Of a stretch of DNA of 64,000 nucleotides, positions 20,417 through 60,439 are shown one piece after another (positions within the stretch are counted from its first letter, which is position 1; each line of letters begins with the position of its first letter). Source of the DNA: Actinomycetes bacterium (GTDB lineage Bacteria; Actinomycetota; CALGFH01); the NCBI GenBank assembly GCA_036377075.1, contig DASUZB010000143.1, forward strand, positions 15,577 to 79,576, read 5' to 3'. Position numbers and translations under genes: made by a program. A model generated the notes under the pieces. The model ran no database searches. It was not told where the DNA came from and saw only the letters and a list, made by a program, of their open reading frames with translations.

Positions 20417-20528
20417 CCAAGGGCTACCAGGGCAGGCGGCCGCGCCCCTGGACTGGTTCAAGTAGGCTACGCGGGGAAAACCGGGTATCACCAATCGAGT
20501 GCCTTCGGACGTCCGGGAGGACGGAGCC

Positions 20529-21008
20529 ATGAGCCGCGGGACCGCGATCTTCCTCATCGTGCTCGGGGCGATCCTCGGGTTCGCCGTCACGGCAGAGATC
20601 AGCGGCATCGACATCCAGACCGTCGGCTTCATCCTGCTGGTCGTCGGCGTCGGCGGTCTGCTGTGGTCGCTGCTCCGGACCAGCGCGGACCAGGAGGTCG
20701 TGCTCCTCCCCGAGCCCGAACAGCCGCACCCGACGGTGGAGCAGGTCGACCCGGTGGTCCTGGCGGAGCTGGTCGGGCGGGTCCACGCGCTCGTCGGCCA
20801 GTCGAGGACCTTCCTCGAGGCCGAGGGCTACACCAACGAGCGCATCGACGAGCTGGCGGCCGACTTCGTCGCCGGCGACCACGGCCGCTCCAGGGACGAG
20901 TTCATCGCCTGGGCGGTGTCGCACGACCACCTCCCACGGCCGGCCGTGCAGGAAGAGGTGCCGACCGTGCGCCAGGAGCCGGTCACGCGCGAGGACGAGC
21001 CCGCGTAG
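20529..21008 (+). CDS. small membrane protein (two TM segments, acidic C-terminal half)
   Basis: GGGAGGA precedes the ATG at 20529. MSRGTAIFLIVLGAILGFAV...GFILLVVGVGGLLW. Confidence 0.6.
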   Translation: MSRGTAIFLIVLGAILGFAVTAEISGIDIQTVGFILLVVGVGGLLWSLLRTSADQEVVLLPEPEQPHPTVEQVDPVVLAELVGRVHALVGQSRTFLEAEGYTNERIDELAADFVAGDHGRSRDEFIAWAVSHDHLPRPAVQEEVPTVRQEPVTREDEPA

Positions 21009-21010
21009 CG

Positions 21011-21475
21011 TCAGCCGGCGATCTCCTCGAGGACCCTGGCGGCGTGGCCGTCGGCCTTGACGTCGTACCAGGCACGCCCGACGTTCCCGTGTTCGTCGAC
21101 CAGGAAGGTGGAGCGCAGGATGCCGATCACCGTCTGGCCGTAGCGGACCCGCTCGCCCCAGGCGCCGTACTGGTCGGCGACCGCGTGGTCGGGATCGCTG
21201 AGCAGGGTGAAGCGGAGGCCGTACTTGGTGCGGAAGCGCTGGTGCGAGGCGGCGTCGTCGGGGGAGATGCCGATCACCGGGACCTCGGCGGCCTGGAACG
21301 CGTGCAGGTTGTCGTTGAACTGGCAGGCTTCCTTGGTGCAGCCGGGGGTGTCGTCGGCGGGGTAGAAGTAGACGAGCACCTTGCGGCCCTTGAAGTCTTC
21401 CAGCGAGACCGGCCTGCCGTCCTGGTCGGGCAAGGTGAACGCGGGTGCCTGGTCGCCGGCGTCGAGCTTGGTCAT
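21011..21475 (-). CDS. bcp: thiol peroxidase / peroxiredoxin Bcp
   Basis: VLVYFYPADDTPGCTKEAC, the peroxidatic Cys motif of the Bcp/PrxQ family. Confidence 0.9.
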   Translation of the reverse strand: MTKLDAGDQAPAFTLPDQDGRPVSLEDFKGRKVLVYFYPADDTPGCTKEACQFNDNLHAFQAAEVPVIGISPDDAASHQRFRTKYGLRFTLLSDPDHAVADQYGAWGERVRYGQTVIGILRSTFLVDEHGNVGRAWYDVKADGHAARVLEEIAG

Positions 21476-21907: not shown

Positions 21908-21973
21908 GCCAGCCTCCTTGGTGGAACGCGGTGTTCGATCGTCTGGTAATACGGGACGGACGGCGCGGGAGGT

Positions 21974-23626
21974 TCATCCCGGCGTGCCTGGCCCTTCGGC
22001 CAGGCCGGCCAGCAGGCAGGCGGCCAGCTCGTGCATTGCGGTGCGGCAGCCGGCGCCCGCGCTCGGCCAGGCGAAGCTGCCGGCCGCGAGCTCGGCGGCC
22101 GCCCGCGGGGCGCTGGGGACCGTCACCAGGCCGCGCGCGTCCGGCAGGTAGCCGCCGAGGCGGTCCAGGTCGAGGCTGGCCCGGGGCGCGTCCATCGCGG
22201 TGGCCTGCCGTGGCGGGCCGGCACCGGCCGGCATGCGGTTGACCACCACGGTGACGGGCAGCCCGGCGCGGATCAGCGGCAGCCCGGCCTCGACCGCCAG
22301 GCTGGCGCCGACCGGGTCGGCATCGGTGACCAGCAGGAGCTGGTCGCAGGCCTGGACGGCGGCCTGGCCGGCAGGCGCGTGCAGCCCCGCCCCGCAGTCG
22401 ACCAGCACCAGCGGGTAGAGCGAGCGCAGCCGCTGGAGCGACAGCCGCCAGGCGCGCTCGTCGAGCGGCGCCCGCCGTGCCGGGGCGGGCAGCACCGCCA
22501 GGCCGTGGGCCGCGCGGCCCAGCCGCGCGTCCAGCCCTTCCCGGGTCGGCATCGCCCGCGCCAGCCGCGCCACCAGGTCGTCGGCCAGCCAGGCGGGGGG
22601 CCGCTCCGGGACGGGCGCGGCTCGTCCCAGCCGCGCGAGCAGGTCTTCGGCGCCCGCCTGCCGGTCGCCGGCGGAGCGCGCGGCAGTCCCCAGTGCGCCG
22701 GCCTCCCAGCCGATTCCGAGGACGCGCGCCAGCGAGCCTGGGTGGTCGCTGCCGCCGGCGTCGACGGCCAGCACCCGCTCCCGCCGGTGCAGCGCCAGCA
22801 GCGTGCCGAGCAGCCCGGTGACGGTGGTCGCGCCGACGCCGTCCCTGGCCGCGGCGACCGCGACCGTCACCGCCCGGCGGGGCAGCGGCGCCCCGACGGC
22901 CGCGTCGAGCTGCTCCAGGTAGGAGCTGGAGCGCCATGCCCGCCGCACCGACCGCAGCCGTCCGAGTCCCGCCCGGCCAGGCGGGCCGCCGGCCCGCGCC
23001 CCTGCCGCCGCCTCCTGCCATCTGGCCTGGCCCGGTCCCGCGTCCCTGCCTGGCGCCGGTTCGTGCCAGGTGGCGCCCGCCGTTCCCGGGTCGGGCGGGG
23101 CCTCGACCGGGGCGAAGGCGGCGGCGCCCATGGGCGCGGCGCCGCGCCGGCCGGAGGCGGCCTCGGTCGCCGCCAGCAGCGCCATCACCAGGCCGCCCTT
23201 GAAGCGCGGGGGGCGTGGCCGGGGAGCGGTCGTGGGCTCGCCGGCCTCGGTCGGGGCGGCGAGCAGCGCCTGGGCGGCCAAGGTGGCGCGTTCGGCCAGC
23301 GGGTGGCGTGGCGGCAGCGCGGCGGCGGTGCGCTCGACGGGGCTGCGGCCGTCCCTCGGCGGTGGCGGAGGCGGCGGCGCCGCCGGGGCGGGGCGGGGCG
23401 TGCCGAGGTGGAGCAGGGCGCCGTTGAGGATCCCGGCGGCAGCGAGCGACGAACCGGCCGGGAGCGGATGCCCACCGACCGGCGTGAGCGTCAGGCCGTC
23501 GGGGGCGGTGTCGTCGCCGAGCAGCCGTGCCAGCACCGGCAGCAGCTCGGCCACTGGCGCGTCGGCCGGCAGCGACAGGTCGCGCCGCCCACGCGGCCCG
23601 GCGACCGTGACCAGCAGGGTGCGCAC
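21974..23626 (-). CDS. YukD/EsaB-like ubiquitin-fold domain, Pro-rich linker and MinD/ParA-like domain with a degenerate Walker A
   Basis: N-terminus MRTLLVTVAGPRGRRDLSLPADAPVAELLPVLARLLG...GILNGALLHL is YukD-like. C-terminus VTVAVAAARDGVGATTVTGLLGT...VLAVDAGG...YPLVLVDCGAG is SIMIBI ParA/MinD-like. GTG start 3 nt after the eccC stop. Confidence 0.7.
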   Translation of the reverse strand: MRTLLVTVAGPRGRRDLSLPADAPVAELLPVLARLLGDDTAPDGLTLTPVGGHPLPAGSSLAAAGILNGALLHLGTPRPAPAAPPPPPPPRDGRSPVERTAAALPPRHPLAERATLAAQALLAAPTEAGEPTTAPRPRPPRFKGGLVMALLAATEAASGRRGAAPMGAAAFAPVEAPPDPGTAGATWHEPAPGRDAGPGQARWQEAAAGARAGGPPGRAGLGRLRSVRRAWRSSSYLEQLDAAVGAPLPRRAVTVAVAAARDGVGATTVTGLLGTLLALHRRERVLAVDAGGSDHPGSLARVLGIGWEAGALGTAARSAGDRQAGAEDLLARLGRAAPVPERPPAWLADDLVARLARAMPTREGLDARLGRAAHGLAVLPAPARRAPLDERAWRLSLQRLRSLYPLVLVDCGAGLHAPAGQAAVQACDQLLLVTDADPVGASLAVEAGLPLIRAGLPVTVVVNRMPAGAGPPRQATAMDAPRASLDLDRLGGYLPDARGLVTVPSAPRAAAELAAGSFAWPSAGAGCRTAMHELAACLLAGLAEGPGTPG

Positions 23627-27825: not shown

Positions 27826-29568
27826 TCAGCGCGCCCGGCTCAGCACCGCCACCGCCGCGCGGGAGAACTCCGGGGTGAAGTCGCCGTTGCCGGCGCCGGC
27901 GCGGGCGATGCGGAGCAGGTCGGCGATCTCGAGCCGGCGGCGCTCGCCGCGCAGTGAGGCCAGGTTGGCCAGCCGGCCCCGGTAGGTGCGCCCGCGCGGG
28001 CCGACCCTGCTCGGTGCCGCGTCGATCACCGCGATCAGGTCGCTCACGGTGACCGGGTCGCTGCCGTTGGACACCACCAGGTCGACCGCCTGGCCCTGGC
28101 GCAGGGTGGCGCCGGCCGGCGGGTTGGTCTCCAGCACCTGGCCCTTGCCGACCTGGGGGTTGCGTACCAGCCGCAGCTTGCCGACGGTGGCGCCGGCCGC
28201 CCGCAGCCGCTGCACGGCCTCGGCCCGTGCCGCGCCGGCCACCGGCGGCACCTGGAGCGGCGCCGGCGTGGTCGGCGCCGGGGCGGTCGTCGCGCCGGTG
28301 CTGGCCGTCGGCAGGGTGGCGTCCGCGGCCCTGCCGGCGCCGACGTCGAAGACCAGCCCGGGCGCGACCAGCCCGATGGACGCCGCCACCACGATCGCCA
28401 GGCCCACGGCGATGGTCGCCAGCGCCAGCCGGTTCCGCCGCCGCGGCGGCTCGGCGAACCTGGTCAGGGCGCGCACCCGCTCCTCGTGCGGCGGCAGCCC
28501 GTCCAGCCCCGTCGGCGGCATGCCCAGCGGCGGCACCACCATGCCCGGCAAGGTCGGGATCGTGCCGGCCTCGTCCCCTCGCGCCGGCGCCGAATCGGGC
28601 TCGTCCTCGCCGGCGACCGCCCTGGCCGGTCCGCGCGGGCCGACCGCCGCCTCCGCGACGGCGGTGCCCACCGGCACGACGGGTTCACCGGCGGCCGCGT
28701 GTTCCGGCGGGCCGGTGGCGACCGGCTCGTCCACCCCCACCGGCACGGCCGGCACCACCGGCTGCGTGGCCGGGTCGGGGAGCTGGGCGAGGGCGTGGCG
28801 CAGCTCGGCGGCGGTCTGCGGGCGCTCGGCGGGGTGCTTGGCGAGCGCCCACATGACCGGCTCGTCCAGCCAGGCGGGCAGCTCCGGGCGGACCGTGCTC
28901 GGAGGGCGCGGGGACTCCTCGAGGTGGCGGCGCATCACCACGAACGGGGTCGGGCCGTCGAACGGCGGCTCGCCGGTGAGCAGCTCGAACAGGCAGCACC
29001 CGAGCGCGTAGAGGTCGGAGCGGTCGTCGGCGCGGCCGCTCTGGACCTGCTCGGGAGACAGGTAGGCGGCCGCCCGGTGACCCTGGGCCACCAGCGCGGC
29101 AAGGCCGAAGTCGGCGACCTGCACGAGGCCGTCCGGCCGCAGCCTGACCTTGCCCGGGGTGAGGCCGCCGTGGACCAGCCCTTGGGCGTGCGCCGCGCCG
29201 AGCGCCGCGCAGACCTGCGCGGCGACCTCGACCGCCCTTGCCGCCGGCGCGGGCCCCGCCGTGCGCTGCAGTTCGCGCACGGTGCGGCCCTCGACCAGCT
29301 CCATCACCACGAACGGCACGCCCTGGTCCTCGCCGAGGCCGAGCACGGCGACGACGTTCGGATGGTCGAGGCGCGCCGCCTCCCGGGCCGCGCGCAGGAA
29401 GCCGGCGCGCGCGCCCGCGTCCTCCGCGAGCTGCGCGTGCGCCACCCGCAGCGCCACGCGACCGGCGTTGTGCGTATCGGCGGCCTCGAACACCTGCCCG
29501 AGCGCGCTCGCCCCCAGCGGCCGGCCGAGCTGGTACCGGCCCGCGAGCAGCCTGCCTCCAGCCTCCAT
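27826..29568 (-). CDS. membrane Ser/Thr-kinase-fold pseudokinase with an extracellular PASTA domain and an unassigned C-terminal domain
   Basis: Hanks fold, but VALR replaces VAIK and HGGLTPGK replaces HRDLKPxN, while DFG, SPE and the later subdomains are retained. One TM segment (LALATIAVGLAIVVAASIGLV). PASTA-like VAGAARAEAVQRLRAAG...VDLVVSNG. Confidence 0.8.
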   Translation of the reverse strand: MEAGGRLLAGRYQLGRPLGASALGQVFEAADTHNAGRVALRVAHAQLAEDAGARAGFLRAAREAARLDHPNVVAVLGLGEDQGVPFVVMELVEGRTVRELQRTAGPAPAARAVEVAAQVCAALGAAHAQGLVHGGLTPGKVRLRPDGLVQVADFGLAALVAQGHRAAAYLSPEQVQSGRADDRSDLYALGCCLFELLTGEPPFDGPTPFVVMRRHLEESPRPPSTVRPELPAWLDEPVMWALAKHPAERPQTAAELRHALAQLPDPATQPVVPAVPVGVDEPVATGPPEHAAAGEPVVPVGTAVAEAAVGPRGPARAVAGEDEPDSAPARGDEAGTIPTLPGMVVPPLGMPPTGLDGLPPHEERVRALTRFAEPPRRRNRLALATIAVGLAIVVAASIGLVAPGLVFDVGAGRAADATLPTASTGATTAPAPTTPAPLQVPPVAGAARAEAVQRLRAAGATVGKLRLVRNPQVGKGQVLETNPPAGATLRQGQAVDLVVSNGSDPVTVSDLIAVIDAAPSRVGPRGRTYRGRLANLASLRGERRRLEIADLLRIARAGAGNGDFTPEFSRAAVAVLSRAR

Positions 29569-29659
29569 GACCCGTTCCCCCTGGCATGGATCATCCCTTC
29601 CGCGGCATTGCATACGGGACGGCCACGCCCCAGGGTTCAGGCGCGCAGGAATTCCCTCG

Positions 29660-30460
29660 TCACTTGCCGGGGCCGGGGCGCAGCACGATCGGGCCTTCCC
29701 GCGCCGGGTTGCCGTTGTCCGGCTCCTCGGTCACCCCGACCTTCGCGTAGATGCTCGCCGGTGCGGCGGTGAACGCGTGCAGCCGCACCTTGCCGCTGAC
29801 CGGCACGGTGAAGGTGCCGAGCGAGACGCGCTGGGGGTGGTCGGGGGTGTCGGCGGCGCCCACCGCCCAGAGCTCGTACAGCTTGCCCGCCTTGGGCGGC
29901 CGGAGGCCCTCGATGCGCACGTCGAAGCTGCGCCCACCGCTGGTCTTCGTCACCAGCACGCGCCCCTTCGCCGTGCCCCCGTCCGCCGCGACCAGGGCCA
30001 GCTCGGTGGTCGCCGGCCGGTTCAGCAGCAGCGTCGCCGGGATGGACAGCAGCACCACCAGCGCTGCCGCCACGGCCGTGGCCAGCAGGGGCCGCCGCCC
30101 GAGGGCGGCGAACCGGCCGCGTGCCTGGCGGCGGCGTTCCAGCTCGGTGGGGCGCGCCCCGGCCGGCGTCACCAGCTCGGGCGCCGCCCGCAGCCCTGGC
30201 GAGGGCAGCTCCCCTGCCTCGGCCGCTTCCTCGGCGGCCTCGCGCACCGCCGCCAGCGTGCGCCCGCGTAGCGTCTCGGGCAGCTGCACCGGCGGCGCGG
30301 CCCGCGCCAGCAGCTCGGGCAGCCCGCGCAGCTCCTCCAGCTCGCGGCGGCAGTCGTCGCACTCGGCCAGGTGCGCCTCGAACGCGACCGTCTCGTCGTC
30401 GTCGAGCTTGCCGAGCGCGTAGCCGGCCACCTCGACGTGAGGCGCGGCATTGTCAGGCAT
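29660..30460 (-). CDS. anti-sigma factor (zf-HC2 N-terminus, RskA-like extracytoplasmic domain)
   Basis: HLAECDDCRRELEEL, one TM segment, C-terminal YELWAV...TEEP. The start overlaps the sigma gene stop by 8 nt. Confidence 0.8.
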   Translation of the reverse strand: MPDNAAPHVEVAGYALGKLDDDETVAFEAHLAECDDCRRELEELRGLPELLARAAPPVQLPETLRGRTLAAVREAAEEAAEAGELPSPGLRAAPELVTPAGARPTELERRRQARGRFAALGRRPLLATAVAAALVVLLSIPATLLLNRPATTELALVAADGGTAKGRVLVTKTSGGRSFDVRIEGLRPPKAGKLYELWAVGAADTPDHPQRVSLGTFTVPVSGKVRLHAFTAAPASIYAKVGVTEEPDNGNPAREGPIVLRPGPGK

Positions 30461-31016
30461 GCACCTCACGCTCCTCCAAGGCTTGCTTGAGCGCCCGCAT
30501 GCCGTAGAAGGCACGCGTCTTCACCGTTCCCAACGGTACCCCTAACCGCTCTGCTGCCTGCACCTGGGTCAGGTCCTGCAGGTGCAACAGCTCGAGCACC
30601 TCCCGCTGGCCGTCGGGCAGCGAGTCGAGCGCCTCCCGGACGCTCAGCCCCACCAGGATCCGGTCGACCGAGTCGCCGGTCTGCTCGCCGGCGGTGCGCT
30701 CGTCCTCGACCGCCTCGGCGAACGGGCGCGAGGAGGGGCGGCGCCACAGGTCCACCGCGATGCGGCGGGCGATGGCGAACGCGAAGCTGCTCACCGAGCC
30801 GCGCTCCGGGTCGTACCTCCCGGCCGTGCGCCACAACCGTACGAACGTCTCCTGCACCAATTCCTCCGCCAAACCGGTGTCGCCGAGAAGCCGAACGCCG
30901 AGCCCGTAGAGGCGACCGGCGTAGCGGTCGTAGAGCTCCTCGAGGGGGGAACCGAGGTCTCCCTCGGCGACTCGGGCGAGCAGCGTAGCGTCTTCGTCGT
31001 GCTTGTCATCGCTCAT
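30453..31016 (-). CDS. ECF (group IV) sigma-70 factor
   Basis: Region 2 (LVQETFVRLWR...FAFAIARRIAVDLWRR) and region 4 (REVLELLHLQDLTQVQAAERLGVPLGTVKTR). Confidence 0.9.
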   Translation of the reverse strand: MSDDKHDEDATLLARVAEGDLGSPLEELYDRYAGRLYGLGVRLLGDTGLAEELVQETFVRLWRTAGRYDPERGSVSSFAFAIARRIAVDLWRRPSSRPFAEAVEDERTAGEQTGDSVDRILVGLSVREALDSLPDGQREVLELLHLQDLTQVQAAERLGVPLGTVKTRAFYGMRALKQALEEREVHA

Positions 31017-31149
31017 GTACGAGGGAAGCTACCGAAACGGTTCATCCCTCACCAGCGGTGGTTGGGGGCTCCAACGCCGACTTCCACGTTCTTCCCTGGT
31101 GGGCGGCCTCGCCACCCGGCAATGGTGCGGACCGCGCCGGCCCGGCGGC

Positions 31150-43984: not shown

Positions 43985-45802
43985 TCAACGGATCGACAAG
44001 GTGGTGACCTGGGTTTCGTCGAGGTCCCCGTGGCGGATGGTGAGCGCGAGCTGCCACCAGCCCGGGGAGGGGATGCGGACGGTGCCGCCGTAGCGGCCCT
44101 GGCCGGTCTTGGCGAGGGTGACGCCGAGCCGGGTGCCGCCCCTGGCGGGGTCGCGCAGCTCGGCCTCGAGCCGGTCGACCGCGGCGGGCTGGCCGCGCTG
44201 GTCGAGCACGGCGAGGTCGACCTGGTCGATGCCGACCCGCGCCGGCGCGACCTCCACCGTGACCGTCCCCGTGGTGGTCGCGAGCGAGGTCGAGAACGGT
44301 CCGTCCTGGGCGGCGCGGGAACTCGCGGCGCTGGCGGCGGGGTCGGTGTTGACCAGCACCGAGGTGAGGACGAGCACGACGGCCGCGATCGCCACCTCCG
44401 CGCCGACCGAGCGCCGCAGGCGGGCGACGGCGGCCACGTCGGGGTCGAGGCGCGCCGCGCCGGGACCTGCCGGCCGGGCGACCAGAGGGCTCGTGGCCAC
44501 CAGGCGGTCCTGGACCAGCCGGCGGCTGAGCGCGCCGAAGCCGACCAGGACGATGGCCACGGCGACCTTGGCGAGCAGCAGCCGGCCGTAGGTCGTCGAG
44601 GTCAGCGCGCTCGGGTGGCCCACCTGGCGCCAGGCCTGGTACACGCCGCTGATCACGATCACCACCACGGCGTCGTAGGCCAGCTCGGAGAAGCGCGGCA
44701 CCACCTCGCGGAGCTCGGCCGGGTCGCGCCGCGGCAGCACCGCGGCGACGAGCACGACCAGGCCGCCGAGCCAGACCGAGACGGCGGCGAGGTGCATCAG
44801 GTCGGCGGCGACCCCGAGGGGGACGAGCTTGCCGTTGCCGGCGTGGCCGGCGAGGCCGGGGGTGACGAGCAGGCCGGCGCCGAGCAGGCCCGCCACGGGG
44901 ACGAACCAGCGCGTGGCGCCCGGCCGTACCAGCTCCGGGTGGCGCGAGACGACCAGGAGCAGCGGCATGGCGGCGGAGAGGATGCCAAGGCGCGCGAGCG
45001 ACACGCGGCCGTAGCGGGTGCCAAGGACCTCCCCGACGAGCTCGGTGTCGAGCACGTCGAGCAGCGGCGATCCGGTGGCGACGACGCCCTGCAGGGGGAG
45101 CGCAACGACGGTGGCGACCACGGCAGCGGTCCACGAGCCGGCCAGCAGCTGCCGTACCCGCGCCGCGCCGGCGCCCTGCGGCCAGAGGGCGACCAGGAAG
45201 GCGAGCCCGCCGGCCAGCAGCACCAGCGACGCGAACAGGGTGAACCTGGTGGCGGCGAGCAGCACGGCGGCGACGCGGCCGCTGCCGTCGCCGGCCGCGG
45301 CACCCGCGGACAGCCAGCCCTCGCCGCCGGCGCCGCGCACGATGAAGCTGATCGAGTCGCTGAGCTGGTGGCCGTCGGCGCTGGTGACCCGCCAGGTGGC
45401 GGTGTAGGCGCCGCTGAGGTCGCGGCGCAGCGGCAGGCGCACGATGCGCCCGTCGCCGCCGGGGTGGTCGGGCCGGCCGCGGTCGACCCGCCGGCCGCCG
45501 GCGTCGGTCACCTGAACGCCGCCGAGGGCGACCTCGACCGGCCCGTCGAACTGCAGCAGCAGCGCCCTCGGCGGCTGCTGCAGGATCGCCCCGTCCTGCG
45601 GCTGGGTGGCGACCACGGTGGCGTGCGCCTCGAGCCGCGGCGCGAGCAGCGTCACGGCGGCGAGCACGAGCGCGAGCACGATCAGCGCATCGAGCAGCAG
45701 GCGGCGAGGTGGCCGGCCGACGCTGCCGGGCAGCGGACGGCCGCGCGCCAGGCGCGCGAGGCGCCGACGCGGCGTGCCGAGCTGCTGCAGCGAGCCAGCC
45801 AT
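43985..45802 (-). CDS. copper resistance CopC-CopD fusion protein (YcnJ-like)
   Basis: The CopC start HATVVATQPQDGAIL follows the signal/TM segment. A multi-TM CopD region and a C-terminal beta-domain follow. Start is ATG 45802 or TTG 45823. Confidence 0.8.
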   Translation of the reverse strand: MAGSLQQLGTPRRRLARLARGRPLPGSVGRPPRRLLLDALIVLALVLAAVTLLAPRLEAHATVVATQPQDGAILQQPPRALLLQFDGPVEVALGGVQVTDAGGRRVDRGRPDHPGGDGRIVRLPLRRDLSGAYTATWRVTSADGHQLSDSISFIVRGAGGEGWLSAGAAAGDGSGRVAAVLLAATRFTLFASLVLLAGGLAFLVALWPQGAGAARVRQLLAGSWTAAVVATVVALPLQGVVATGSPLLDVLDTELVGEVLGTRYGRVSLARLGILSAAMPLLLVVSRHPELVRPGATRWFVPVAGLLGAGLLVTPGLAGHAGNGKLVPLGVAADLMHLAAVSVWLGGLVVLVAAVLPRRDPAELREVVPRFSELAYDAVVVIVISGVYQAWRQVGHPSALTSTTYGRLLLAKVAVAIVLVGFGALSRRLVQDRLVATSPLVARPAGPGAARLDPDVAAVARLRRSVGAEVAIAAVVLVLTSVLVNTDPAASAASSRAAQDGPFSTSLATTTGTVTVEVAPARVGIDQVDLAVLDQRGQPAAVDRLEAELRDPARGGTRLGVTLAKTGQGRYGGTVRIPSPGWWQLALTIRHGDLDETQVTTLSIR

Positions 45803-45876
45803 CCAGTTGACGACTTCGCGCAAAGGGCCTGGTCTCCCCTTGATGGGGCGGGCGTGGGGGCGCCCGGGGGAGGGTG

Positions 45877-45890
45877 CATCCGTACGGATG
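45877..45890. promoter_or_regulatory. perfect 14-bp palindrome CATCCGTACGGATG upstream of copCD
   Basis: Self-complementary 14-mer, 55-75 nt upstream of the candidate copCD starts. Confidence 0.3.
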
Positions 45891-46949
45891 TATCAACCCG
45901 CGACTGATCAGTGAGATTCCCGATGCGTCCGGCCGGCGCGCCGCGCGGAGGGGACGGGACCAGGACGGCGAAACGGAGGAGCGTCCGCCGGCGCCTGCTC
46001 CGGTAAATCTCGGTGGAATTCTCTCTGGATAGCTTCTGCCATGTCCCGGCGGTTCCGGCGCGCAACCGGAGGGGAATATCGTCGGCCCCCTCGGCGCCCG
46101 GTGGGGCGGCGGCCGGCGGGGCGAGGGGCGGCGCTGGCGCCGGCCCCCCCGGGACGGGCTAGTCCTTCCGACCCCGGCGGACGTTCGGCGCCTCGGGCCG
46201 CGGGCGCTCGCGGTCCGCGGCAGCCGGCGCCGGGGTCCGCGGCGCCGGGAGGCGTATGCAGCGGTCAGGGGCACGCCCGGGACCCCAGGTCCCCCGGTGG
46301 ACACCCGAGGGACCCACGGGCCGGGGACCGCCGGCCGTGGCCGCCGCCGGGACGTTCGCCCGATCCGTCCCACGCGCTGACGTAGGTGGTTCTACCGATC
46401 GCTTGCCGGGCTTGTGAGCCGCGGGATGAGGCCCGCCGGGCGCGCGCCGCCCCCGCCCCCCCGGGGCGCGGTCATCCTCGTGCCGACCTGTGGTCGTGCC
46501 GGCGGGCAAGGAACCCGAGCAATTCGAGCACCTGAGGCGATCAAGTCGATTGCCCTATTGGTCGACCTCACGAGGGTTGATTGCCGACCCGGCATCGCCA
46601 ATAGTTACGGCCATGTATGGATGCGGTCCTCGGCAGAATACGCAGCCGTGGTTCCTCGCCACGCACCCCCCGGCGCCGCACGGTACCCTCCACCGGCGTC
46701 CCTGCGTAGCGTGGAGCGGTGGCACGAGCCTCGCCGGCGACCGGCCAGCAGCGGCCGAGCGAAATTCGATCGCCCGATCGCAGCACCGCCCGAGAGCACC
46801 CGGTCAGTAGCTTTTCTCGCCTCCCAAATCCCCATCCCCCGACGCGAAACGTAGGCCAGCGCCCCGGCACCGCGGCATCCCGGCAGTCAGCGCGGTCCGT
46901 CTCCCACCACCAGCTCCCCGGGCCCGTTGGTCAGGACGAAGGGTAGGAA

Positions 46950-49492
46950 ATGCTCCAGAATCTGCCGATCCGGTCGAAGCTGATTGCCATCCTTGCCCTT
47001 CCGGTGCTGGTGATGCTGTTGCTGGTGGCCTCGCGCACCAACCAGAACGTGGCCCAGGGCCATGAGGCGGTGCGCCTGGTCGCGCTGACGAACTTCATGG
47101 ACAAGAGCCTCGAGCTCACCTCCGAGCTGCAGCGGGAGCGTGACCTGGCGGCCGCGTACCTGGCCACGGACCGGCTCGCCGGTCGCGACCGCCTGTTCGC
47201 CCAGCAGGCCAGGGTCGACCGGGTGGCCGCCGAGTGCCGTGCCGAGTCCGCCAAGCTCGCCTGGGGCAACTACCAGGACCGCTTGCGCAAGCACGCCACC
47301 GACGTCGACGGCCGGCTGAGCGAGCTGGCCGGGCAGCGGGCGGCGATGGACAAGCCCAACGTGGTCGCGACGCGCGCCCTCGGCTACTACACCGACACCA
47401 TCGGCGGGCTGCTCGACCTCGAGAAGCAGGTGCCCCTCGAGTTCACCGAGCGCCAGTCGACCCTCGGCAACGTCAGCCTCGAGCTGGTCCAGAACATGAA
47501 CAACGTGGTGCGCCTCTCGCGCGGCAAGGAGGACGTCGCCTACCAGCGCAGCCTGCTGTACGCCCTGCTGGTCCACCAGGCGGTCGCGCCGCAGGCGCCG
47601 ACCGGCCTGGCGCCAGGCGAGGACCGCGACAAGCTCACCGGCGCGGTCTCGGCGGGCGACTCCTGGCTGCGGGAGTTCCAGGCGTTCGCCACCCCCGAGC
47701 AGCGCGGCCTGTACGCGCGCACCGTGACCGGCTTCGGCGTCGAGCGCTCGGCGCAGCTCCGCCAGGCCGTCCTGGGCCAGGCCAACCGGCTCGACCTGGG
47801 CGTCAACGCGGAGGAGTGGCTGACCGCCAACAACGCCAAGGTCGACCGGCTGCGCGCGGTCGAGCAGGAGCTGACCTTCGGCCTGCTGCGCAGCATCGAC
47901 GCCGCGCACAAGGCCGCCAACACCGCGACGGTCACCGGCAGCGGCCTGATCATGCTGGTGCTGTTCGTCTCGGTCGGCATCTCGCTGTCGATGTCGCAGT
48001 CGATGGTCCAGTCGCGCAAGCGCCTCAAGGAGTCCGCCCAGGAGCTGGTCGAGTGGCGGCTGCCGACGGTGGTGGAGCGCCTCAAGCAGCTGGAGCGGAC
48101 CGAGGAGGCCGACCTCGAACCCGAGGAGGTCCCCCCGGCGGTCGTGGCCGGCAACGAGATCGGCGAGGTGGCGGTCGCCTTCAGCCAGGTGCACCACGTC
48201 GCCGTCCAGGTCGCCACCGAGCGGGCGGCGCTGCGCAAGAGCGTCGGCGACATGTTCCTCAACTTCGCCAGGCGCAACCAGGTGCTGATCGACCGCCAGC
48301 TCGAGCTGATCGAGGACCTGGAGGGACGGGAGGGCAACCAGGCGGTGCGCGAGGAGTTCCTGCGCCTGGACCGCCTCGCGACCAGCATGCGGCGCAACGC
48401 CGAGGACCTGATCGTGCTCTCCGGCGCGACCCCGCCGCGGCGCTGGAGCGAGCCGGTCCCGCTGCCCGAGGTGCTGCAGGCCGCCCTCTCCGAGGTGGAG
48501 GACTACCGCCGGGTGGAGCTCGTGCGCCTCGACGAGCTGGCGATCGTCGGCGAGGCGGCCAGCGACGTGGCCCACATCCTGGCCGAGCTGATCGAGAACG
48601 CGACCTCCTTCTCGCCGCCCCAGACGATGGTCCACGTGGCCGGCCAGACGGTCACCACCGGCTACGTGGTCGAGATCGAGGACCGCGGCATCGCATGTCC
48701 AACGCCGAGCTGGTGGAGATCAACGAGCGCCTGGTCAACCCGACCGGCATCGACCCGACCCTGCCGCAGCGCCTGGGCCTGTTCGTGGTCGCCCGCCTGG
48801 CCACCCGCCACGGCATCAAGGTCCAGCTGCGCCACTCCTGGTACGAGGGCGTGACCGCGCTGGTCCTGCTGCCCAACTCGCTGGTCGTGATGGCCGACCG
48901 TGACGCCCTGCTCGCCCCGGCCATGGCCGGCGGGGTGGCGCCGCCGGCGCGCGCCCCGCTGGTCTCGTCCTCGTCGGTGGCCGCGAGCCCGCCGCCGGCG
49001 GCGAGCCCGCCGCCCGTCGGCCCGCCGGGCCAGGGCGCCGAGGAGGTGCGGCTGCCGATCTTCGAGGCGGCCCGCTCCGACTGGTTCGGCCCCGGCCCGT
49101 CGCCGGACGGCGTGCAGGTCCCTTCGCCCCCGCCGGCGACAGCGGCGAGCGGCACGGGGCCTACCCATGACGACGCGGACGTCGGCCCGCTCGGTCCGCC
49201 GCTCGGCCCGCCGCCGCGGACCGACGCCGGCCTGCCGCTGCGGGTCCCGCGCGCGCGCCTGGCGCCGGGCCTGTCGGGCACGTCGCCGTCTGGCGGACGC
49301 GAGGCCGACCAGGCCGTCACCGCCCGCTCGCCCGACGACATCCGCCAGCGTCTGACCAGTTACCAGCAGGGCTTCGAGCGCGGGCGCCAGGAGGCGTCCG
49401 TCCCTGATGGCAAGGAAGGACCGTTCGCGCCGGAGGACACCGGCGCGAACGCGGCCGGGGGCACCGACCCGTCCAGCGCCACGAGGAGTTGA
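46950..49492 (+). pseudogene. cvnA: conservon sensor kinase CvnA-like (NIT-HAMP-HATPase) interrupted by a 1-nt frame break near 48693
   Basis: Frame 0 reads through ...GYVVEIEDRGI and then becomes nonsense. The -1 frame continues with MSNAELVEINERLVNP...RHGIKVQLRHSWYEG, colinear with the paralog at 50916. DNA is GGCATCGCATG here and GGCGTCGGCATG in the paralog. Confidence 0.75.
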
Positions 49493-49493
49493 G

Positions 49494-49916
49494 ATGGCCG
49501 AACTCAGCAGGGAAGCGGAGAACCTGAACTGGCTTGTCACGAACTTCGTGCGGAAGGTCCCCGGCGTCATCCACACGATCGTGGTCTCGGCCGACGGGCT
49601 CCCCGTGGCGGTCTCGGAGGACCTCGACCGCACCACCGCCGACCAGCTCGCGGCGGTGGCGTCCGGTCTGTCCAGCCTGACCCAGGGCGCGGCCAGGTAC
49701 TTCGGCGGCGGCAACGTCAACCAGACGGTCGTCGAGATGGAGAAGGGCTTTCTGTTCGTGATGCTGATCAGCGACGGCTCCTGCCTGGCCGTGCTGGCGT
49801 CCCCCAACGCCGACATCGGCCTGATCGGCTACGAGATGGCCCTGCTGGTCGCTCGCGCCGGCGACGTCCTCACCCCAGCCCTACGGGCCGAGCTGCAGGC
49901 CGCCCTGCCACGATGA
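49494..49916 (+). CDS. cvnB: Roadblock/LC7-domain protein (CvnB)
   Basis: [37 protein letters not shown]...GYEMALLV. Confidence 0.9.
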
Positions 49917-50305
49917 CCACGGTCACGCCGGACTCGAGCCGGAACGACGACGGGCGGGACCCCGGCCCGGTCGTCCGACCGTACGCGATGACCGGCGGAC
50001 GGACCCGCTCCATCCGCGACGAGGAACTCGAGCTCGAGACGCTCGTGTCGACCACCGCCGAGGGCGAGATGTCGGCACCGTCGCTCAACCTCGAGCAGCG
50101 CTCGATCGCCATGCTCTGCAGGGACCTGCTCTCGGTCGCGGAGATCTCCGCCCGCCTCGACGTCCCGCTCGGCGTCGCCAGGGTGCTCATCGGCGACATG
50201 GCGGAAGGGGGGCTCCTGGCCGTGCACCCACCCCACCGGTCGGACGACGACCGTCCGGACCTTGCACTCCTCGAGAGGGTTCTCTATGGCCTCCGCGCAA
50301 TCTAG
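49913..50305 (+). CDS. cvnC: DUF742 protein (CvnC)
   Basis: ATGA overlap with cvn[14 protein letters not shown]...[23 protein letters not shown]. Confidence 0.85.
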
Positions 50306-50912
50306 ATCAGCTCCGAACGCCCGCACCCCCAGGGCGCCCACGGCGGTCAAGATCGTCGTCGCCGGCGGTTTCGGGGTAGGCAAGACCACGCTGGTCGGCT
50401 CCGTTTCGGAGATCGAGCCGCTCACCACCGAGGCGGTGATGACCGCGGTCAGCACCGGGGTGGACGACCTGTCCAAGCTGCCCCACAAGACCACCACCAC
50501 GGTGGCGCTGGACTTCGGCCGCATCACCCTGGACTCCGACCTGATCCTGTACCTGTTCGGCACGCCCGGGCAGGAGCGCTTCTGGTTCATGTGGGACGAG
50601 CTGGTGCGGGGCGCGATCGGGGCGGTCGTCCTGGTCGACACCCGGCGCCTGGACGACAGCTTCCCCGCGGTCGACTACTTCGAGCAGCGCGGCGTCCCCT
50701 TCGTGGTCGGCATCAACTGCTTCTTCGGCGAGGTGCTCCACACCGTCGAGGACGTGCGCGAGGCGCTGGTGGTCAGCGAGGAGGTCCCGATCGTCCTGTG
50801 CGACGCCAGGCAGCGCGAGTCCTCCAAGGCGGTCCTGATCGAGGTGGTGCAGCACGCGCTGGTGCGAGCCTCGGGCGCGTTGCGAGGGACCGCGAAGGCG
50901 GGAGGTGCCTGA
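50286..50912 (+). CDS. cvnD: Ras-like small GTPase / ATP-GTP-binding protein (CvnD)
   Basis: KIVVAGGFGVGKTT (P-loop), LFGTPGQERF (G3), VGINCF. Overlaps the end of cvnC. Confidence 0.9.
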   Translation: MASAQSRSAPNARTPRAPTAVKIVVAGGFGVGKTTLVGSVSEIEPLTTEAVMTAVSTGVDDLSKLPHKTTTTVALDFGRITLDSDLILYLFGTPGQERFWFMWDELVRGAIGAVVLVDTRRLDDSFPAVDYFEQRGVPFVVGINCFFGEVLHTVEDVREALVVSEEVPIVLCDARQRESSKAVLIEVVQHALVRASGALRGTAKAGGA

Positions 50913-50915
50913 GCC

Positions 50916-53396
50916 ATGCGCGCGCTCGACGACGTACGGATCCGGACGCGGCTCATCGCCATCTTCCTGCTGCCGATCCTGACCCTGACGATCGTGGCCG
51001 CCAGCCAGATCCAGTCGAGCGTCGCCGCCGGGTTCAAAGCCGACAAGGAGCGGCAGCTGCTCACCTTCGCCATCGGCCTCGGCGACCTGACCCACGAGCT
51101 GCAGCTCGAACGGGACCACTCGGTGAACTGGGTCGGCAGCGGCAAGGAGGCGGCCTCCTACAAGGAGGTCGTGGTCCAGCGCGCCAAGGTCGACAAGGCG
51201 ATCGGGGCCGACTGGGACCAGGCCAGCGAGTCGGTGCACAAGGCCGAGCAGCGCGGCTTCACCGGGCAGGTCGCGGCCGTGCGCGAGAAGCTCGGCCAGC
51301 TCTCCGCCACCCGCCAGGCGATCGACACGCTGCCGAAGAGCCCCGGGGAGGTCCTGCCCTACTACACCGAGCTGATCCGCGACATCCTCGGCCTGAACAC
51401 CGACATCGCGGCGGCCGGGCTGACCCCGGCGGTGTACCGCAGCGCCACCGCCTACGTGGCCATGTCCCAGGCCAAGGAGGCGGTCTCCTACCAGCGCGGC
51501 TTCGGCGCGGCGGTGCTGTCGACCGGCCGCTTCCGCGGCAACGAGCGCGAGACCTTCGCCGACGCCATCGGGGCGGAGGCGACCTGGACCGAGCAGTTCG
51601 ACGCCTTCGCGCTCGACGAGCAGCAGAACCTCTACCAGCCGTGGCTCTCGGGCAGCGAGGCCCAGCGCGGCACCCGCCTGGCCGAGTCGCTGGTCGAGCA
51701 GGCCGGCCTGGGCCGCACGACCATCGCCCCCGACCAGTGGCTGGCGATCATGAGCGGCAAGGTCGAGGCGTTCCGCCAGGTCGAGCAGCGCCTGGCCGCC
51801 GAGATGCTGCGCGCCAACCGCGCCGACGCCCTCGCCCAGGCCCGCAGCCTGACCAACAACATCCTGGTCACCCTGATCGTGGTCGCCCTCGCGCTCGCCT
51901 TCGCGCTGCACATGGAGCGGTCGATGGTGCGCCCGCTGGCCGCGCTGCGCAGCGCGGCCAGGAGCGTGGCGCGGCGGCGGCTGCCCGGCGTGGTCGAGCG
52001 GCTGTCGCGCAACGAGCGGGTCGACCCCCGCGCCGAGGCGGACCCGGTCGACGTCACCGCCCGCGACGAGATCGGCCAGGTGGCCGAGGCGTTCAACCGC
52101 GCCCACCGGGCCGCCGTCGACCTCGCCCTCGAGCAGGCCGCCCTGCGCAAGAGCGTCGGCGACATGTTCCTCAACCTCGCCAGGCGCAGCCAGGCCCTGA
52201 TCGACCGGCAGCTCGAGCTGATCGACAAGCTCGAGCGCGACGAGACCGACGCCGACGCGCTGCAGGAGCTGTTCCGCCTCGACCACCTCGCCACCCGCCT
52301 GCGGCGCAACGCCGAGGACCTGATCGTGCTCTCCGGCGCCAAGCCGGCGCGGCGCTGGAGCCGGCCGGTCACCCTCCACGAGGTGGTGCGCGCCGCCACC
52401 GCCGAGGTGGAGGACTACACCCGCATCGAGCTGCTGCCGATCGACGAGGTCGGCGTCACCGGCCAGGGCGTCGCCGACGTCATCCACCTGCTCGCCGAGC
52501 TGGTGGAGAACGCCACCTCCTTTTCCCCGCCGGGGACGATGGTGCACATCGCCGGCCAGCCGGTGGACGGCGGCTACATGATCGAGATCGAGGACCGCGG
52601 CGTCGGCATGAGCGACGCGGAGCTGCTCGAGGTCAACGAGCGCCTGGCCAACCCTCCAAGGGTCGACCTCGGCCTGTCCCGCAAGCTCGGGCTGTACGTG
52701 GTGAGCCGGCTGGCCGCCCGCTACGGCATCCGGGTGCAGCTGCGGCACTCCTGGTACGGCGGCATCACCGTGCTGGTGGTCCTGCCCGACAGCCTGCTGG
52801 TGCAGCCGGCCGGGGTCCCCCCGGCGCGGCCGGGGCTGGCCGGCGCCCACGCGGAGGCGGCCAACGGCGGCCGGGCGCTGCCGGCGCCGCCACCGCTGTC
52901 GCTGCCAGGCAGCGGCGGCGCCGCCCGCCGCGGCGAGCCGCAGCCGGCGGGCTGGTCCAACTGGTTCGAGAAGACCGAGATGGGCAAGGACTACGTGCCC
53001 TTGCGCCGCCACGCCGCGCAGCCCGGCGAGGGCATGACCGTGCCGCCGTCACCGCGCGAGCTGCGCCCCGACGGGCGGCCGCTCCCCGTCGACCTGCGCC
53101 GCGCCGACGACGCGCCGGAGCAGCCGGTGACCGCCGGCGAGCCGCCGACGGCGGCGCCCGCGGACCGGGTGGGGCAGGAGGGCGCGCCGCCGGTGGACGC
53201 CCCCCAGACGCTGCCGCGCCGCGACAAGGGCCAGCACCTGCCCGGTGCCGGCCCGGACGGCGCCGGGGTGTCGGCGCCACCGAACGGGGTGCCGGCCGGT
53301 GCACCGGGGAACGGCGAGGGCGCGGGCCTGAGCGACGTGGGGGGCGGCGCCGGCGTGCCCCCGGCGAGCCGGCCGGGGAGCCCACCGTGCAGGTGA
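50916..53396 (+). CDS. cvnA: second CvnA-like sensor kinase (NIT-HAMP-HATPase); its conserved C-terminal tail lies in another frame
   Basis: Colinear with 46950..49492 through the HATPase domain (IEIEDRGVGMSDAELLEVNERLANP...RYGIRVQLRHSWYGG). Starts 3 nt after the cvnD stop. Confidence 0.8.
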   Translation: MRALDDVRIRTRLIAIFLLPILTLTIVAASQIQSSVAAGFKADKERQLLTFAIGLGDLTHELQLERDHSVNWVGSGKEAASYKEVVVQRAKVDKAIGADWDQASESVHKAEQRGFTGQVAAVREKLGQLSATRQAIDTLPKSPGEVLPYYTELIRDILGLNTDIAAAGLTPAVYRSATAYVAMSQAKEAVSYQRGFGAAVLSTGRFRGNERETFADAIGAEATWTEQFDAFALDEQQNLYQPWLSGSEAQRGTRLAESLVEQAGLGRTTIAPDQWLAIMSGKVEAFRQVEQRLAAEMLRANRADALAQARSLTNNILVTLIVVALALAFALHMERSMVRPLAALRSAARSVARRRLPGVVERLSRNERVDPRAEADPVDVTARDEIGQVAEAFNRAHRAAVDLALEQAALRKSVGDMFLNLARRSQALIDRQLELIDKLERDETDADALQELFRLDHLATRLRRNAEDLIVLSGAKPARRWSRPVTLHEVVRAATAEVEDYTRIELLPIDEVGVTGQGVADVIHLLAELVENATSFSPPGTMVHIAGQPVDGGYMIEIEDRGVGMSDAELLEVNERLANPPRVDLGLSRKLGLYVVSRLAARYGIRVQLRHSWYGGITVLVVLPDSLLVQPAGVPPARPGLAGAHAEAANGGRALPAPPPLSLPGSGGAARRGEPQPAGWSNWFEKTEMGKDYVPLRRHAAQPGEGMTVPPSPRELRPDGRPLPVDLRRADDAPEQPVTAGEPPTAAPADRVGQEGAPPVDAPQTLPRRDKGQHLPGAGPDGAGVSAPPNGVPAGAPGNGEGAGLSDVGGGAGVPPASRPGSPPCR

Positions 53397-60224: not shown

Positions 60225-60439
60225 AACCCCGGCATCGTCCCAGCGCCTGCCGCTAGGCACCAGGACGTTCCCCGGCAGTTCACCGGCGATTCCACGGCAG
60301 CGCCGACTCCTCCCTCGACCGCCACGACTGGCCGGTTCCTCTCGCAGGATGCCAGCCAAGTCTTGCACGGCGCTTGGGTCACGAGGCTGTGGCAGGATCG
60401 CCGAGAGCGATCAGAAGCAGTCCGAAGCGGAGGACGAGC

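Follow-up and report, generated by a model that had tools for sequence, protein, structure and literature searches.

The pseudokinase gene and its catalytic site

A 64-kb stretch of Actinomycetes bacterium contig DASUZB010000143.1, the whole of which we call the window, encodes on its minus strand a membrane protein that joins a kinase fold without a canonical catalytic base to an extracellular PASTA domain, and that lies directly ahead of EccC, an FtsK/SpoIIIE ATPase of type VII secretion systems (T7SSs). The minus-strand gene order is extracytoplasmic function (ECF) sigma factor, anti-sigma factor, pseudokinase, EccC, a YukD::MinD-like fusion, a WXG100 protein and an AhpC/TSA peroxiredoxin, with EccC beginning 26 nucleotides (nt) past the pseudokinase stop codon (Table 1). 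A sequence-only reading of this DNA had described a pseudokinase with a PASTA ectodomain, which our analysis bears out, and had suggested a scaffold or gate for the adjoining ATPase by analogy with EssB; taken as a whole, that interpretation is partly supported.

The protein matches the Pfam Pkinase profile (PF00069) at 93.2 bits, against a cut-off of 31.7, over profile positions 1-260 of 263, and thus has a Hanks-type fold; its closest solved structure is the kinase domain of Mycobacterium tuberculosis PknB (E 2e-55, ~43% identity). A residue-by-residue alignment to PknB, from which all equivalences below are taken, pairs the beta3 Lys K40 with R41 (in VALRV), the alphaC Glu E59 with A60, the HRD motif with H133-G134-G135 in the catalytic loop HGGLTPGK (residues 133-140), and the catalytic-loop residues K140 and N143 with T137 and K140. 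The DFG motif is intact (residues 153-155), and G135 stands 18 residues before D153, as D138 does before D156 in PknB, so that of the Lys, Glu, Asp, Asn and DFG Asp expected of a competent Hanks kinase only the last is left. The Lys-to-Arg change in VALR, the Asp-to-Gly change in HGGLTPGK, the 18-residue spacing, the weakened G-loop (GASALGQV) and the retained SPE and DLYALG motifs (DLYALGCC in full) had all been read from the sequence, and each holds in the alignment; the profile and PknB comparisons that had been proposed as a check place neither a Lys nor an Asp at the catalytic positions. The missing alphaC Glu had escaped that reading, as had the shortened activation loop, which has 16 residues against 25 in PknB (~9 fewer) and therefore contains no equivalents of the PknB phospho-acceptors T171 and T173. 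The alignment shows a PknB-derived protein that cannot have a canonical catalytic base, and we consider it in all likelihood catalytically inert.

Loss of the catalytic Asp is shared by a whole family. A search of 5.8 billion proteins returned 43 clusters at E<=1e-91, after which the scores fell abruptly to ordinary Stk1/PknB kinases at ~1e-67. When the family set (n=44 sequences) is compared with ordinary PASTA kinases from the same search (n=76), the HRD Asp is present in 0/44 family members (43 Gly, 1 Asn) as opposed to 75/76 ordinary kinases, a loss of the catalytic site far beyond chance, and the alphaC Glu in none of the 43 aligned members as opposed to 75/76. Activation loops span 13-17 residues in the family and 22-25 in 75 of the 76 ordinary kinases. 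The DFG Asp is found throughout both sets (44/44 and 76/76), while the beta3 Lys persists in 32 and the catalytic-loop Asn in 40 of the 44 family members, each being present in 76/76 ordinary kinases. Lineage A, which includes the window protein, has the loop HGGLTPG and lineage B has HRGLKPEN; lineage C (P0126) has HGALTPAN, with DVG replacing DFG. Wider relatives have G, N, A or T at the position of the catalytic base, a variety that speaks against a chemical role for that position.

We show that this family is conserved under purifying selection and is not decaying. Within lineages both kinase lobes are 76-78% identical and the cytoplasmic linker 24-27%, and the ratio of nonsynonymous to synonymous substitution rates (dN/dS) is 0.37-0.46 in the kinase domain, 0.45-0.49 in the PASTA domain and C-terminal domain (CTD) and 0.77-1.01 in the linker, values whose absolute size is inflated by strong codon bias at third-position GC and in which the contrast between domains is the evidence. 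Many C-lobe residues are invariant in the family, as is R11, the counterpart of R10 in the PknB dimer interface. The juxtamembrane motif LPPHEERVRALTRFAEPP is 84% identical within lineage A, and P0126 of lineage C has a related form. Lineage B, whose pseudokinase gene does not share an operon with eccC, lacks it, and the motif LPPHEERVRALTRF is conserved only in lineages where the pseudokinase heads an eccC-yukD::minD operon.

This rare family has so far turned up only in uncultured soil Actinomycetota, represented by metagenomes and metagenome-assembled genomes. A scan of 185,579 species, each represented by a single genome, yielded a single full-length member (L009, Actinomycetota bacterium), and a metagenome scan contributed only L093 and L094, its remaining 78 loci being used as controls. 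We rejected one further candidate, L010, as a family member: it is an active PASTA kinase that lacks the CTD and has no EccC within 12 kb. At L010 (130-3392) this kinase, with HRDIKPGN and a family-type DLYALGCC, is divergent from an intact MinD-like gene (RGGVGKTT), and its open reading frame (ORF) is apparently frameshifted near the C-terminus.

The start codon at 29568, for which the earlier coordinates are exact, is favoured because the upstream ATG at 29613, which we rejected, shares bases with the -10 element of the conserved promoter-like motif described below, because homologs begin MEAGG, and because a GGGGGAA resembling a ribosome-binding site precedes the ATG at 29568. A hydropathy scan places RRRNR on the N-terminal, cytoplasmic side of the transmembrane helix, and the kinase fold is therefore cytoplasmic and the PASTA domain (Pfam PF03793, E 1e-10) outside; the one transmembrane segment and one PASTA-like repeat described earlier both stand. 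The result is a bitopic topology of the EssB/YukC type, with a cytoplasmic pseudokinase and an extracellular C-terminal domain. The succession of kinase domain, one transmembrane helix and PASTA is that of Stk1/PknB, but with a single repeat and an extra CTD, and the best NCBIfam model (Stk1/PknB, NF033483) scores 309.6 bits, under its equivalog cut-off of 450.

In an AlphaFold2 (AF2) model of residues 432-580, with a predicted local distance difference test score (pLDDT) of 92.3, the PASTA fold leads into a compact four-helix domain. By Foldseek the PASTA part matches the third PASTA repeat of PknB (3ouv) with a template-modelling score of 0.90 and a root-mean-square deviation of 1.9 A. The terminal segment had been described as about 85 residues of no recognisable family; its length proves to be 78, but no family has emerged, with no Pfam match even at E<=1, no NCBIfam family and no structural neighbour in the PDB by Foldseek (best E 0.77, probability 0.30). 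Structure prediction, which had been proposed for this segment, returns the same compact four-helix domain when the CTD is modelled alone (AF2 pLDDT 93.8). An invariant motif, ARAGAGNGDF(T/S)PxFS, occupies the end of helix 3 and the loop into helix 4. Searched against 1.84 billion proteins, a CTD profile recovers only 62 representatives, in 1-5 tandem copies (two in most lineage B members); the carriers include a live kinase, P0173 (VAVKL, HRDVKPGNV, DFG), as well as degenerate ones, and the domain is encoded in 0/156 control kinase loci. The CTD is thus a rare conserved four-helix module, sometimes in tandem, rather than family-less junk. Among its other carriers, P0144 (L092 9001-11637) combines an HGD catalytic loop with five copies of the CTD and adjoins polyphosphate-metabolism genes, and P0130 (L091 965-2419) has no detectable kinase domain. 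None of the carriers outside the PASTA/HxG clade (P0173, P0144, P0130) adjoins a T7SS, from which it follows that the T7SS link is specific to the PASTA pseudokinase clade and not to the CTD.

Secretion genes and a shared promoter motif

The EccC of the window exceeds the cut-offs of both T7SSa models, TIGR03924 (EccCa, 693 bits) and TIGR03925 (EccCb, 721 bits), and falls below that of EssC (TIGR03928); the domain search reports no FHA domain in it. EccC and a WXG100 protein are the components of a T7SSa/ESX system found here, and none of EccB, EccD, EccE and MycP is among the ORFs of the window. Of EccD, a protein that is present in some lineage B loci, the window has only the YukD domain, fused to a MinD-like domain in a protein that has no transmembrane helix, and the pseudokinase is the sole membrane protein of the cassette besides EccC in a scan for transmembrane helices.

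The association can be followed through 11 contexts: the window, L001/L002, L003-5, L006, the P0015 contig, L007, L008, L009, L093 (a 4-kb contig ending inside the pseudokinase gene), L094 and L090. In every one that is long enough, a cluster of EccC, WXG100 and YukD-domain genes adjoins the pseudokinase, across three lineages and at least three T7SS architectures, and EccC occurs in 0/156 control (ordinary-kinase) loci; the link to the adjoining EccC that the sequence-only reading had drawn is not accidental. Lineage A has a co-directional order of pseudokinase, EccC, YukD::MinD and WXG100, and at the lineage C locus L090 the pseudokinase gene overlaps eccC by 4 nt and is followed by YukD::MinD and WXG100 genes, so that in both lineages the pseudokinase is the first gene of an operon with eccC. 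L003 and L008 have a convergent EccD-EccC-WXGx2 arrangement with T7SS_signal toxins and a SUKH immunity gene, and L007 and L094 have EspG...WXG divergent from EccC-YukD-SAF. The order sigma, anti-sigma, pseudokinase is kept in 10 of the 11 contexts, the exception being L090, which has no adjoining sigma/anti-sigma pair and a SARP/BTAD regulator upstream, and which keeps the T7SS link. Because of this locus, and because no control locus has EccC, the T7SS is the universal partner of the pseudokinase and the sigma/anti-sigma pair a near-universal one.

Two lineage B loci encode proteins with a T7SS_signal domain (L003 18635-19957, L008 11866-13779), either with a DUF6883 domain or beside a SUKH/SMI1 immunity-like gene, and each of these genes is preceded by its own copy of the GAACC-N17-CGTA motif treated below. 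This gene content suggests that lineage B T7SSs export antibacterial toxins. In all lineage A loci an AhpC/TSA peroxiredoxin (window 21011-21475, minus strand) and a DUF6458 membrane protein (20499-21008, plus strand) come after WXG100; alongside the redox-type ZAS motif in the anti-sigma factor, they hint at an oxidative-stress input to the regulon.

The YukD::MinD-like protein is a second pseudoenzyme of the same T7SS cassette, judged by its P-loop, which reads RDGVGATT where the live relative at L010 has RGGVGKTT and which has lost the Walker A Lys. The form G-x-G-(A/V)-(S/T)-T is found in all 23 close YukD::MinD homologs and at L090, and KGGVGKTT in five distant homologs. At L173 (5964-11726) EccC, a YukD::MinD that is one of these five and has an intact P-loop, and WXG100 follow one another without a pseudokinase and without GAACC-N17-CGTA, a cassette that may represent the ancestral state. 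The coincidence of pseudokinase presence with P-loop loss, in six contexts as against one, is weak but suggestive.

The sigma factor is the best-conserved gene of the locus, 95-97% identical among lineage A members and 72-78% identical when lineage A is compared with lineage B; among NCBIfam models it is closest to PRK09645 and to SigK (PRK09646), scoring below cut-off for both, and more weakly related to the SigM model. Aligning the sequences upstream of the sigma genes revealed ATGAACC-N17-CGTA in lineages A and B. GAACC-N15-19-CGTA occurs four times in the window where 0.54 matches are expected, a count that 0/100 shuffles reach, and three of the four, each with a 17-nt spacer, stand on the minus strand before the sigma, pseudokinase and WXG100 genes (Table 1). 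The fourth (44903-44928, plus strand) is antisense within a CopC/CopD gene (43985-45892, minus strand) and is probably there by chance. Among the other loci with DNA, the motif in its exact 26-nt form stands 2 nt before the sigma gene in 8 that bear one and 43-68 nt before the pseudokinase in all 9, L090 included; it also precedes WXG100 genes, a 95aa-WXG-EccC operon, EccC or T7SS_signal toxin genes. Its spacers diverge between lineages and its cores are invariant, and the background in control loci is 8 matches in 3.8 Mb of strand sequence. A sigma factor with regions 2 and 4, its membrane anti-sigma factor and a shared -35/-10 motif point to an ECF regulon; the ECF sigma would use this motif, and the pseudokinase is apparently switched on together with the T7SS.

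The -10-like CGTA lies 2 nt before the sigma ATG everywhere (window, L001, L003, L006-L009, L094), which implies a leaderless mRNA, another real start codon or another register of the -10 element. An extra copy of the motif at L090 (8368-8393, minus strand) faces away from the pseudokinase and reads antisense into the SARP/BTAD gene at its 3' end. Elsewhere in the window, a large HTH/NB-ARC/TPR regulator and two NIT-domain sensors, one of them a histidine kinase (60257-63064 and 46947-53396, both plus strand), are unrelated to these findings.

Table 1. Features of the pseudokinase locus, in window coordinates, with the evidence for each
Feature	Coordinates	Strand	Evidence
PASTA pseudokinase gene, 580 aa + stop	27826..29568	minus	ORF; Pfam; PknB alignment
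Pseudokinase domain, residues 12-258	28795..29535	minus	Pfam; PknB alignment; dN/dS
Cytoplasmic juxtamembrane motif LPPHEERVRALTRFAEPP, residues 358-375	28444..28497	minus	Conservation across lineages
Single transmembrane helix, residues 381-407	28348..28428	minus	Hydropathy scan
Extracellular PASTA domain, residues 439-501	28066..28254	minus	Pfam PF03793; AF2 model; Foldseek
Extracellular four-helix CTD, residues 503-580	27829..28062	minus	AF2 model
EccC, T7SSa-type FtsK/SpoIIIE ATPase, 1389 aa	23630..27799	minus	TIGR03924; TIGR03925
YukD::MinD/ParA-like fusion, 550 aa, Pro-rich linker, RDGVGATT	21974..23626	minus	P-loop residues; transmembrane scan
WXG100 (EsxA-like) substrate, 98 aa	21611..21907	minus	Pfam WXG100, E 1.6e-22; TIGR03930 above cut-off
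ECF sigma, SigK-like, 187 aa	30453..31016	minus	Pfam Sigma70_r2, r4
Membrane anti-sigma: ZAS HLAECDDC (residue 48), one transmembrane helix, extracytoplasmic RskA_C	29660..30514	minus	Pfam zf-HC2, RskA_C; NCBIfam anti-sigma
GAACC-N17-CGTA promoter-like motif, ends 2 nt before sigma ATG	31018..31043	minus	Pattern scan; putative autoregulation
GAACC-N17-CGTA promoter-like motif, 44 nt before pseudokinase ATG	29613..29638	minus	Pattern scan
GAACC-N17-CGTA promoter-like motif, 42 nt before WXG100 ATG	21950..21975	minus	Pattern scan

Explanations for the conserved pseudokinase

We favour, with a probability of roughly 0.5, the explanation that the pseudokinase serves a minimal T7SS under ECF control as a wall-binding accessory without catalytic activity, acting as an adaptor or scaffold; that it works with the T7SS in some way is very likely. 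A SigK/SigM-like ECF sigma factor would be held by the ZAS/RskA-type membrane anti-sigma factor until its release, and would then act at GAACC-N17-CGTA promoters to transcribe three targets: the WXG100 gene, the pseudokinase-eccC-yukD::minD operon and the operon of the sigma factor itself. The pseudokinase would span the membrane, with its kinase fold facing the cytoplasm and its PASTA and four-helix domains facing outwards. The kinase fold and juxtamembrane motif may dock EccC, the YukD-(pseudo-MinD) adaptor or both, without phosphotransfer, and the PASTA domain and CTD may bind peptidoglycan or its precursors, so that the machine would be positioned or licensed where the wall allows export. 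Contact with EccC or YukD::MinD and binding of the ectodomain to the cell wall are in this sense predicted steps, and a scaffold or gate role is drawn by analogy with EssB. For the need of a T7SS to cope with the wall, T7SSb offers a precedent, since it is reported to recruit the hydrolase EssH (PMC13059805). We also entertain, as a tentative and rather doubtful extension, that pseudokinase, YukD::pseudo-MinD and EccC make up an unrecognised T7SS subtype in which two dead enzymes replace the EccB/D/E/MycP membrane scaffold, one being the PknB-derived pseudokinase, held to peptidoglycan by PASTA and the new four-helix domain, and the other the MinD-like adaptor with its dead P-loop. If this extension is true, export would be gated by the status of the wall and not by phosphorylation or ATP-driven switching, and the EssB principle would have arisen independently and convergently in Actinomycetota.

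Several observations weigh against a wall-binding accessory of the machine. The lineage B pseudokinase gene comes immediately after the sigma/anti-sigma pair, as a monocistronic unit that converges on the T7SS genes, an arrangement that fits a signalling role equally well or better. PASTA ectodomains are classically sensors. The L173 cassette rules out the pseudokinase as an obligatory core subunit of the EccC-YukD::MinD-WXG100 cassette, and because that cassette lacks it, the protein is an accessory and not a universal core part; L173 is also the single context that makes up the negative set for the P-loop co-variation.

The ECF layer and the YukD::MinD partner with its dead P-loop were both absent from the sequence-only reading, and the ECF layer turns sigma/anti-sigma signalling into a real rival role. 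The pseudokinase could be a signalling or feedback part of the ECF switch that controls T7SS transcription and not the machine: its PASTA domain and CTD would report wall status or attack by competitors, and the dead kinase would bind the cytoplasmic ZAS domain of the anti-sigma factor, or bring a live kinase to it, and in this way tune the release of the sigma factor. We hold this main rival to be possible but less probable than a role at the machine. The tight, same-strand run from sigma through anti-sigma to pseudokinase in 10/11 contexts, where the T7SS arrangement varies, speaks for it, as do the extraordinary conservation of the sigma factor, the lineage B arrangement, the absence of the ECF motif from L173, which has no pseudokinase, and a feedback loop that would close if the pseudokinase is itself a target of the sigma factor, as predicted. 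Control of T7SS transcription by a PASTA kinase also has a precedent in Enterococcus faecalis IreK, cited in PMC11217815. L090, however, has the pseudokinase, the T7SS and the motif without an adjoining sigma/anti-sigma pair, and its pseudokinase gene overlaps eccC by 4 nt; the anti-sigma factor owns sensory equipment of its own (ZAS and an RskA_C ectodomain); the pseudokinase has its own predicted sigma-dependent promoter, as output genes do; and both the dead MinD P-loop and the juxtamembrane motif track the cassette rather than the sigma factor.

The remaining explanations look to the kinase ancestry. Descent from PknB/Stk1 (43% identity, E 2e-55), the invariant R11 at the equivalent of the PknB dimer interface and a mostly kept nucleotide pocket (K40 in 32/44, N143 in 40/44, the DFG Asp in 44/44) would suit a decoy or modulator of the housekeeping PknB, which, when induced along with the T7SS, competes for PASTA ligands or heterodimerises with the live PknB and so damps or redirects wall-synthesis signalling locally during installation of the secretion machine. 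We think this improbable, since no neighbouring gene points to PknB substrates, there is one PASTA repeat where PknB typically has 3-4, and the strict T7SS adjacency, the novel CTD and the co-variation with the MinD-like protein are left unexplained. Less probable still is an atypical active enzyme with a non-canonical base or another nucleotide-dependent activity. The invariant DFG Asp, together with a G-loop, beta3 Lys and catalytic-loop Asn in most family members, is compatible with such an enzyme, and some proteins initially classed as pseudokinases were later shown to be active (examples in PMC12599244); against it stand the variety of residues at the base position (G, N, A or T among relatives), the family-wide loss of the alphaC Glu, the truncated activation loop and, in the window protein, the further changes of Lys to Arg and Asn to Lys. 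A decaying remnant of a duplicated pknB, which the loss of several catalytic residues might bring to mind, is effectively refuted by ORFs intact in 44 clusters, a kinase-domain dN/dS of 0.37-0.46 as against ~1 in the linker, many invariant C-lobe residues, and conserved promoter and synteny.

Relation to known kinase-fold proteins and secretion systems

The functionally closest system to the PASTA pseudokinase is EssB/YukC, the membrane pseudokinase of the Bacillota T7SSb, whose G-loop is degraded and whose activation loop is attenuated (PMC12599244), both features shared with the protein described here. Each is bitopic, its N-terminal pseudokinase fold lying in the cytoplasm and its C-terminal domain outside the cell, and each is encoded next to an FtsK/SpoIIIE ATPase, a YukD/EsaB ubiquitin-like protein and WXG100, with the pseudokinase directly upstream of the ATPase. 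The EssB analogy of the sequence-only reading therefore stands for topology and for position before the ATPase, but it does not extend to homology: the pseudokinase has no match to PF10140 (EssB/YukC) at E<=0.01 and clear PknB ancestry (~43% identity), and because of this we regard the resemblance as convergent and the recruitment of this recent PknB derivative as independent. EssB has lost all three motifs, whereas the PASTA pseudokinase keeps the DFG Asp and its family often the beta3 Lys. It also differs in its PASTA and new four-helix ectodomain, in its T7SSa-type EccC without FHA here and in the existence of a related cassette free of a pseudokinase, and with no FHA domain reported in EccC the mode of contact used by EssB in T7SSb cannot simply be transferred.

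TscD, TsdD and TseD, the single-pass membrane Ser/Thr kinases of T7SSc-e, have an N-terminal cytoplasmic kinase (Garrett, Higginson and Palmer 2024, PMC11217815); their active sites are conserved, signalling through the FHA domain of the ATPase and PPM phosphatases has been proposed for them, and T7SSd occurs in Actinomycetota (PMC11217815). The window protein resembles them in being single-pass, with a cytoplasmic kinase domain encoded within a variant T7SS cluster, but its active site is dead, neither FHA nor PP2C was matched in the cluster genes, and their ectodomains are helical and unrelated, with no PASTA domain reported. With PknB/Stk1 (the KAPD family of the bSTK atlas) it shares the succession of kinase domain, transmembrane helix and PASTA and 43% identity, yet it has lost the catalytic Asp, the alphaC Glu and the phospho-acceptors, has one PASTA repeat and an extra CTD, and is found with a T7SS and an ECF sigma factor instead of in a division or cell-wall cluster. 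The regulation recalls mycobacterial SigM-RsmA, which controls ESX-4 through a GGAACCG -35 element (PMC13491425): an ECF pair drives WXG100, T7SS and effector genes from a shared -35/-10 site there and is predicted to do so here, and GGAACCG compares with (T)GAACC-N17-CGTA here. The sigma factor of the window is nearer to SigK models, its anti-sigma factor is of the ZAS/RskA_C kind, and the regulon, predicted from the DNA, includes a pseudokinase.

Seven catalogued families of actinobacterial membrane pseudokinases, MviN/MurJ (ActPs3), ActPs1, ActPs2, GLW, CP1, DYD and DLHK, likewise have ties to the cell envelope and non-catalytic roles. All seven have lost the VAIK Lys, and ActPs1-3 and GLW the DFG Asp (PMC12599244, bSTK atlas); compared by these published descriptions, the present family differs in its DFG Asp (44/44), its VAIK Lys (32/44), its HxG loop, its PASTA domain and its T7SS link. 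We set aside the Esr kinase/FHA pathways of oral Actinomycetales (PMC13622651) as a different system, built on live kinases. In the literature searched, neither EccC nor PASTA combined with pseudokinase led to a description of this family, which is a PASTA-bearing addition to the short list of bacterial pseudokinase families.

Little is understood of T7SSs beyond those of mycobacteria and Bacillota, and what kinase-fold proteins do in them is an open question, with EssB dead and TscD/TsdD live. The family described here represents a second, independent recruitment of the kinase fold into T7SSs, this time from the wall-sensing PknB lineage and with a clear gradient of catalytic decay, and it brings features new to such systems: a PASTA/CTD ectodomain, an ECF regulon defined by sequence that links all the parts, and a dead MinD partner. 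We thus anticipate that this family can serve as a natural experiment on how signalling enzymes turn structural, and that concrete hypotheses about the coupling of a minimal T7SS to the wall can be put to the test with it.

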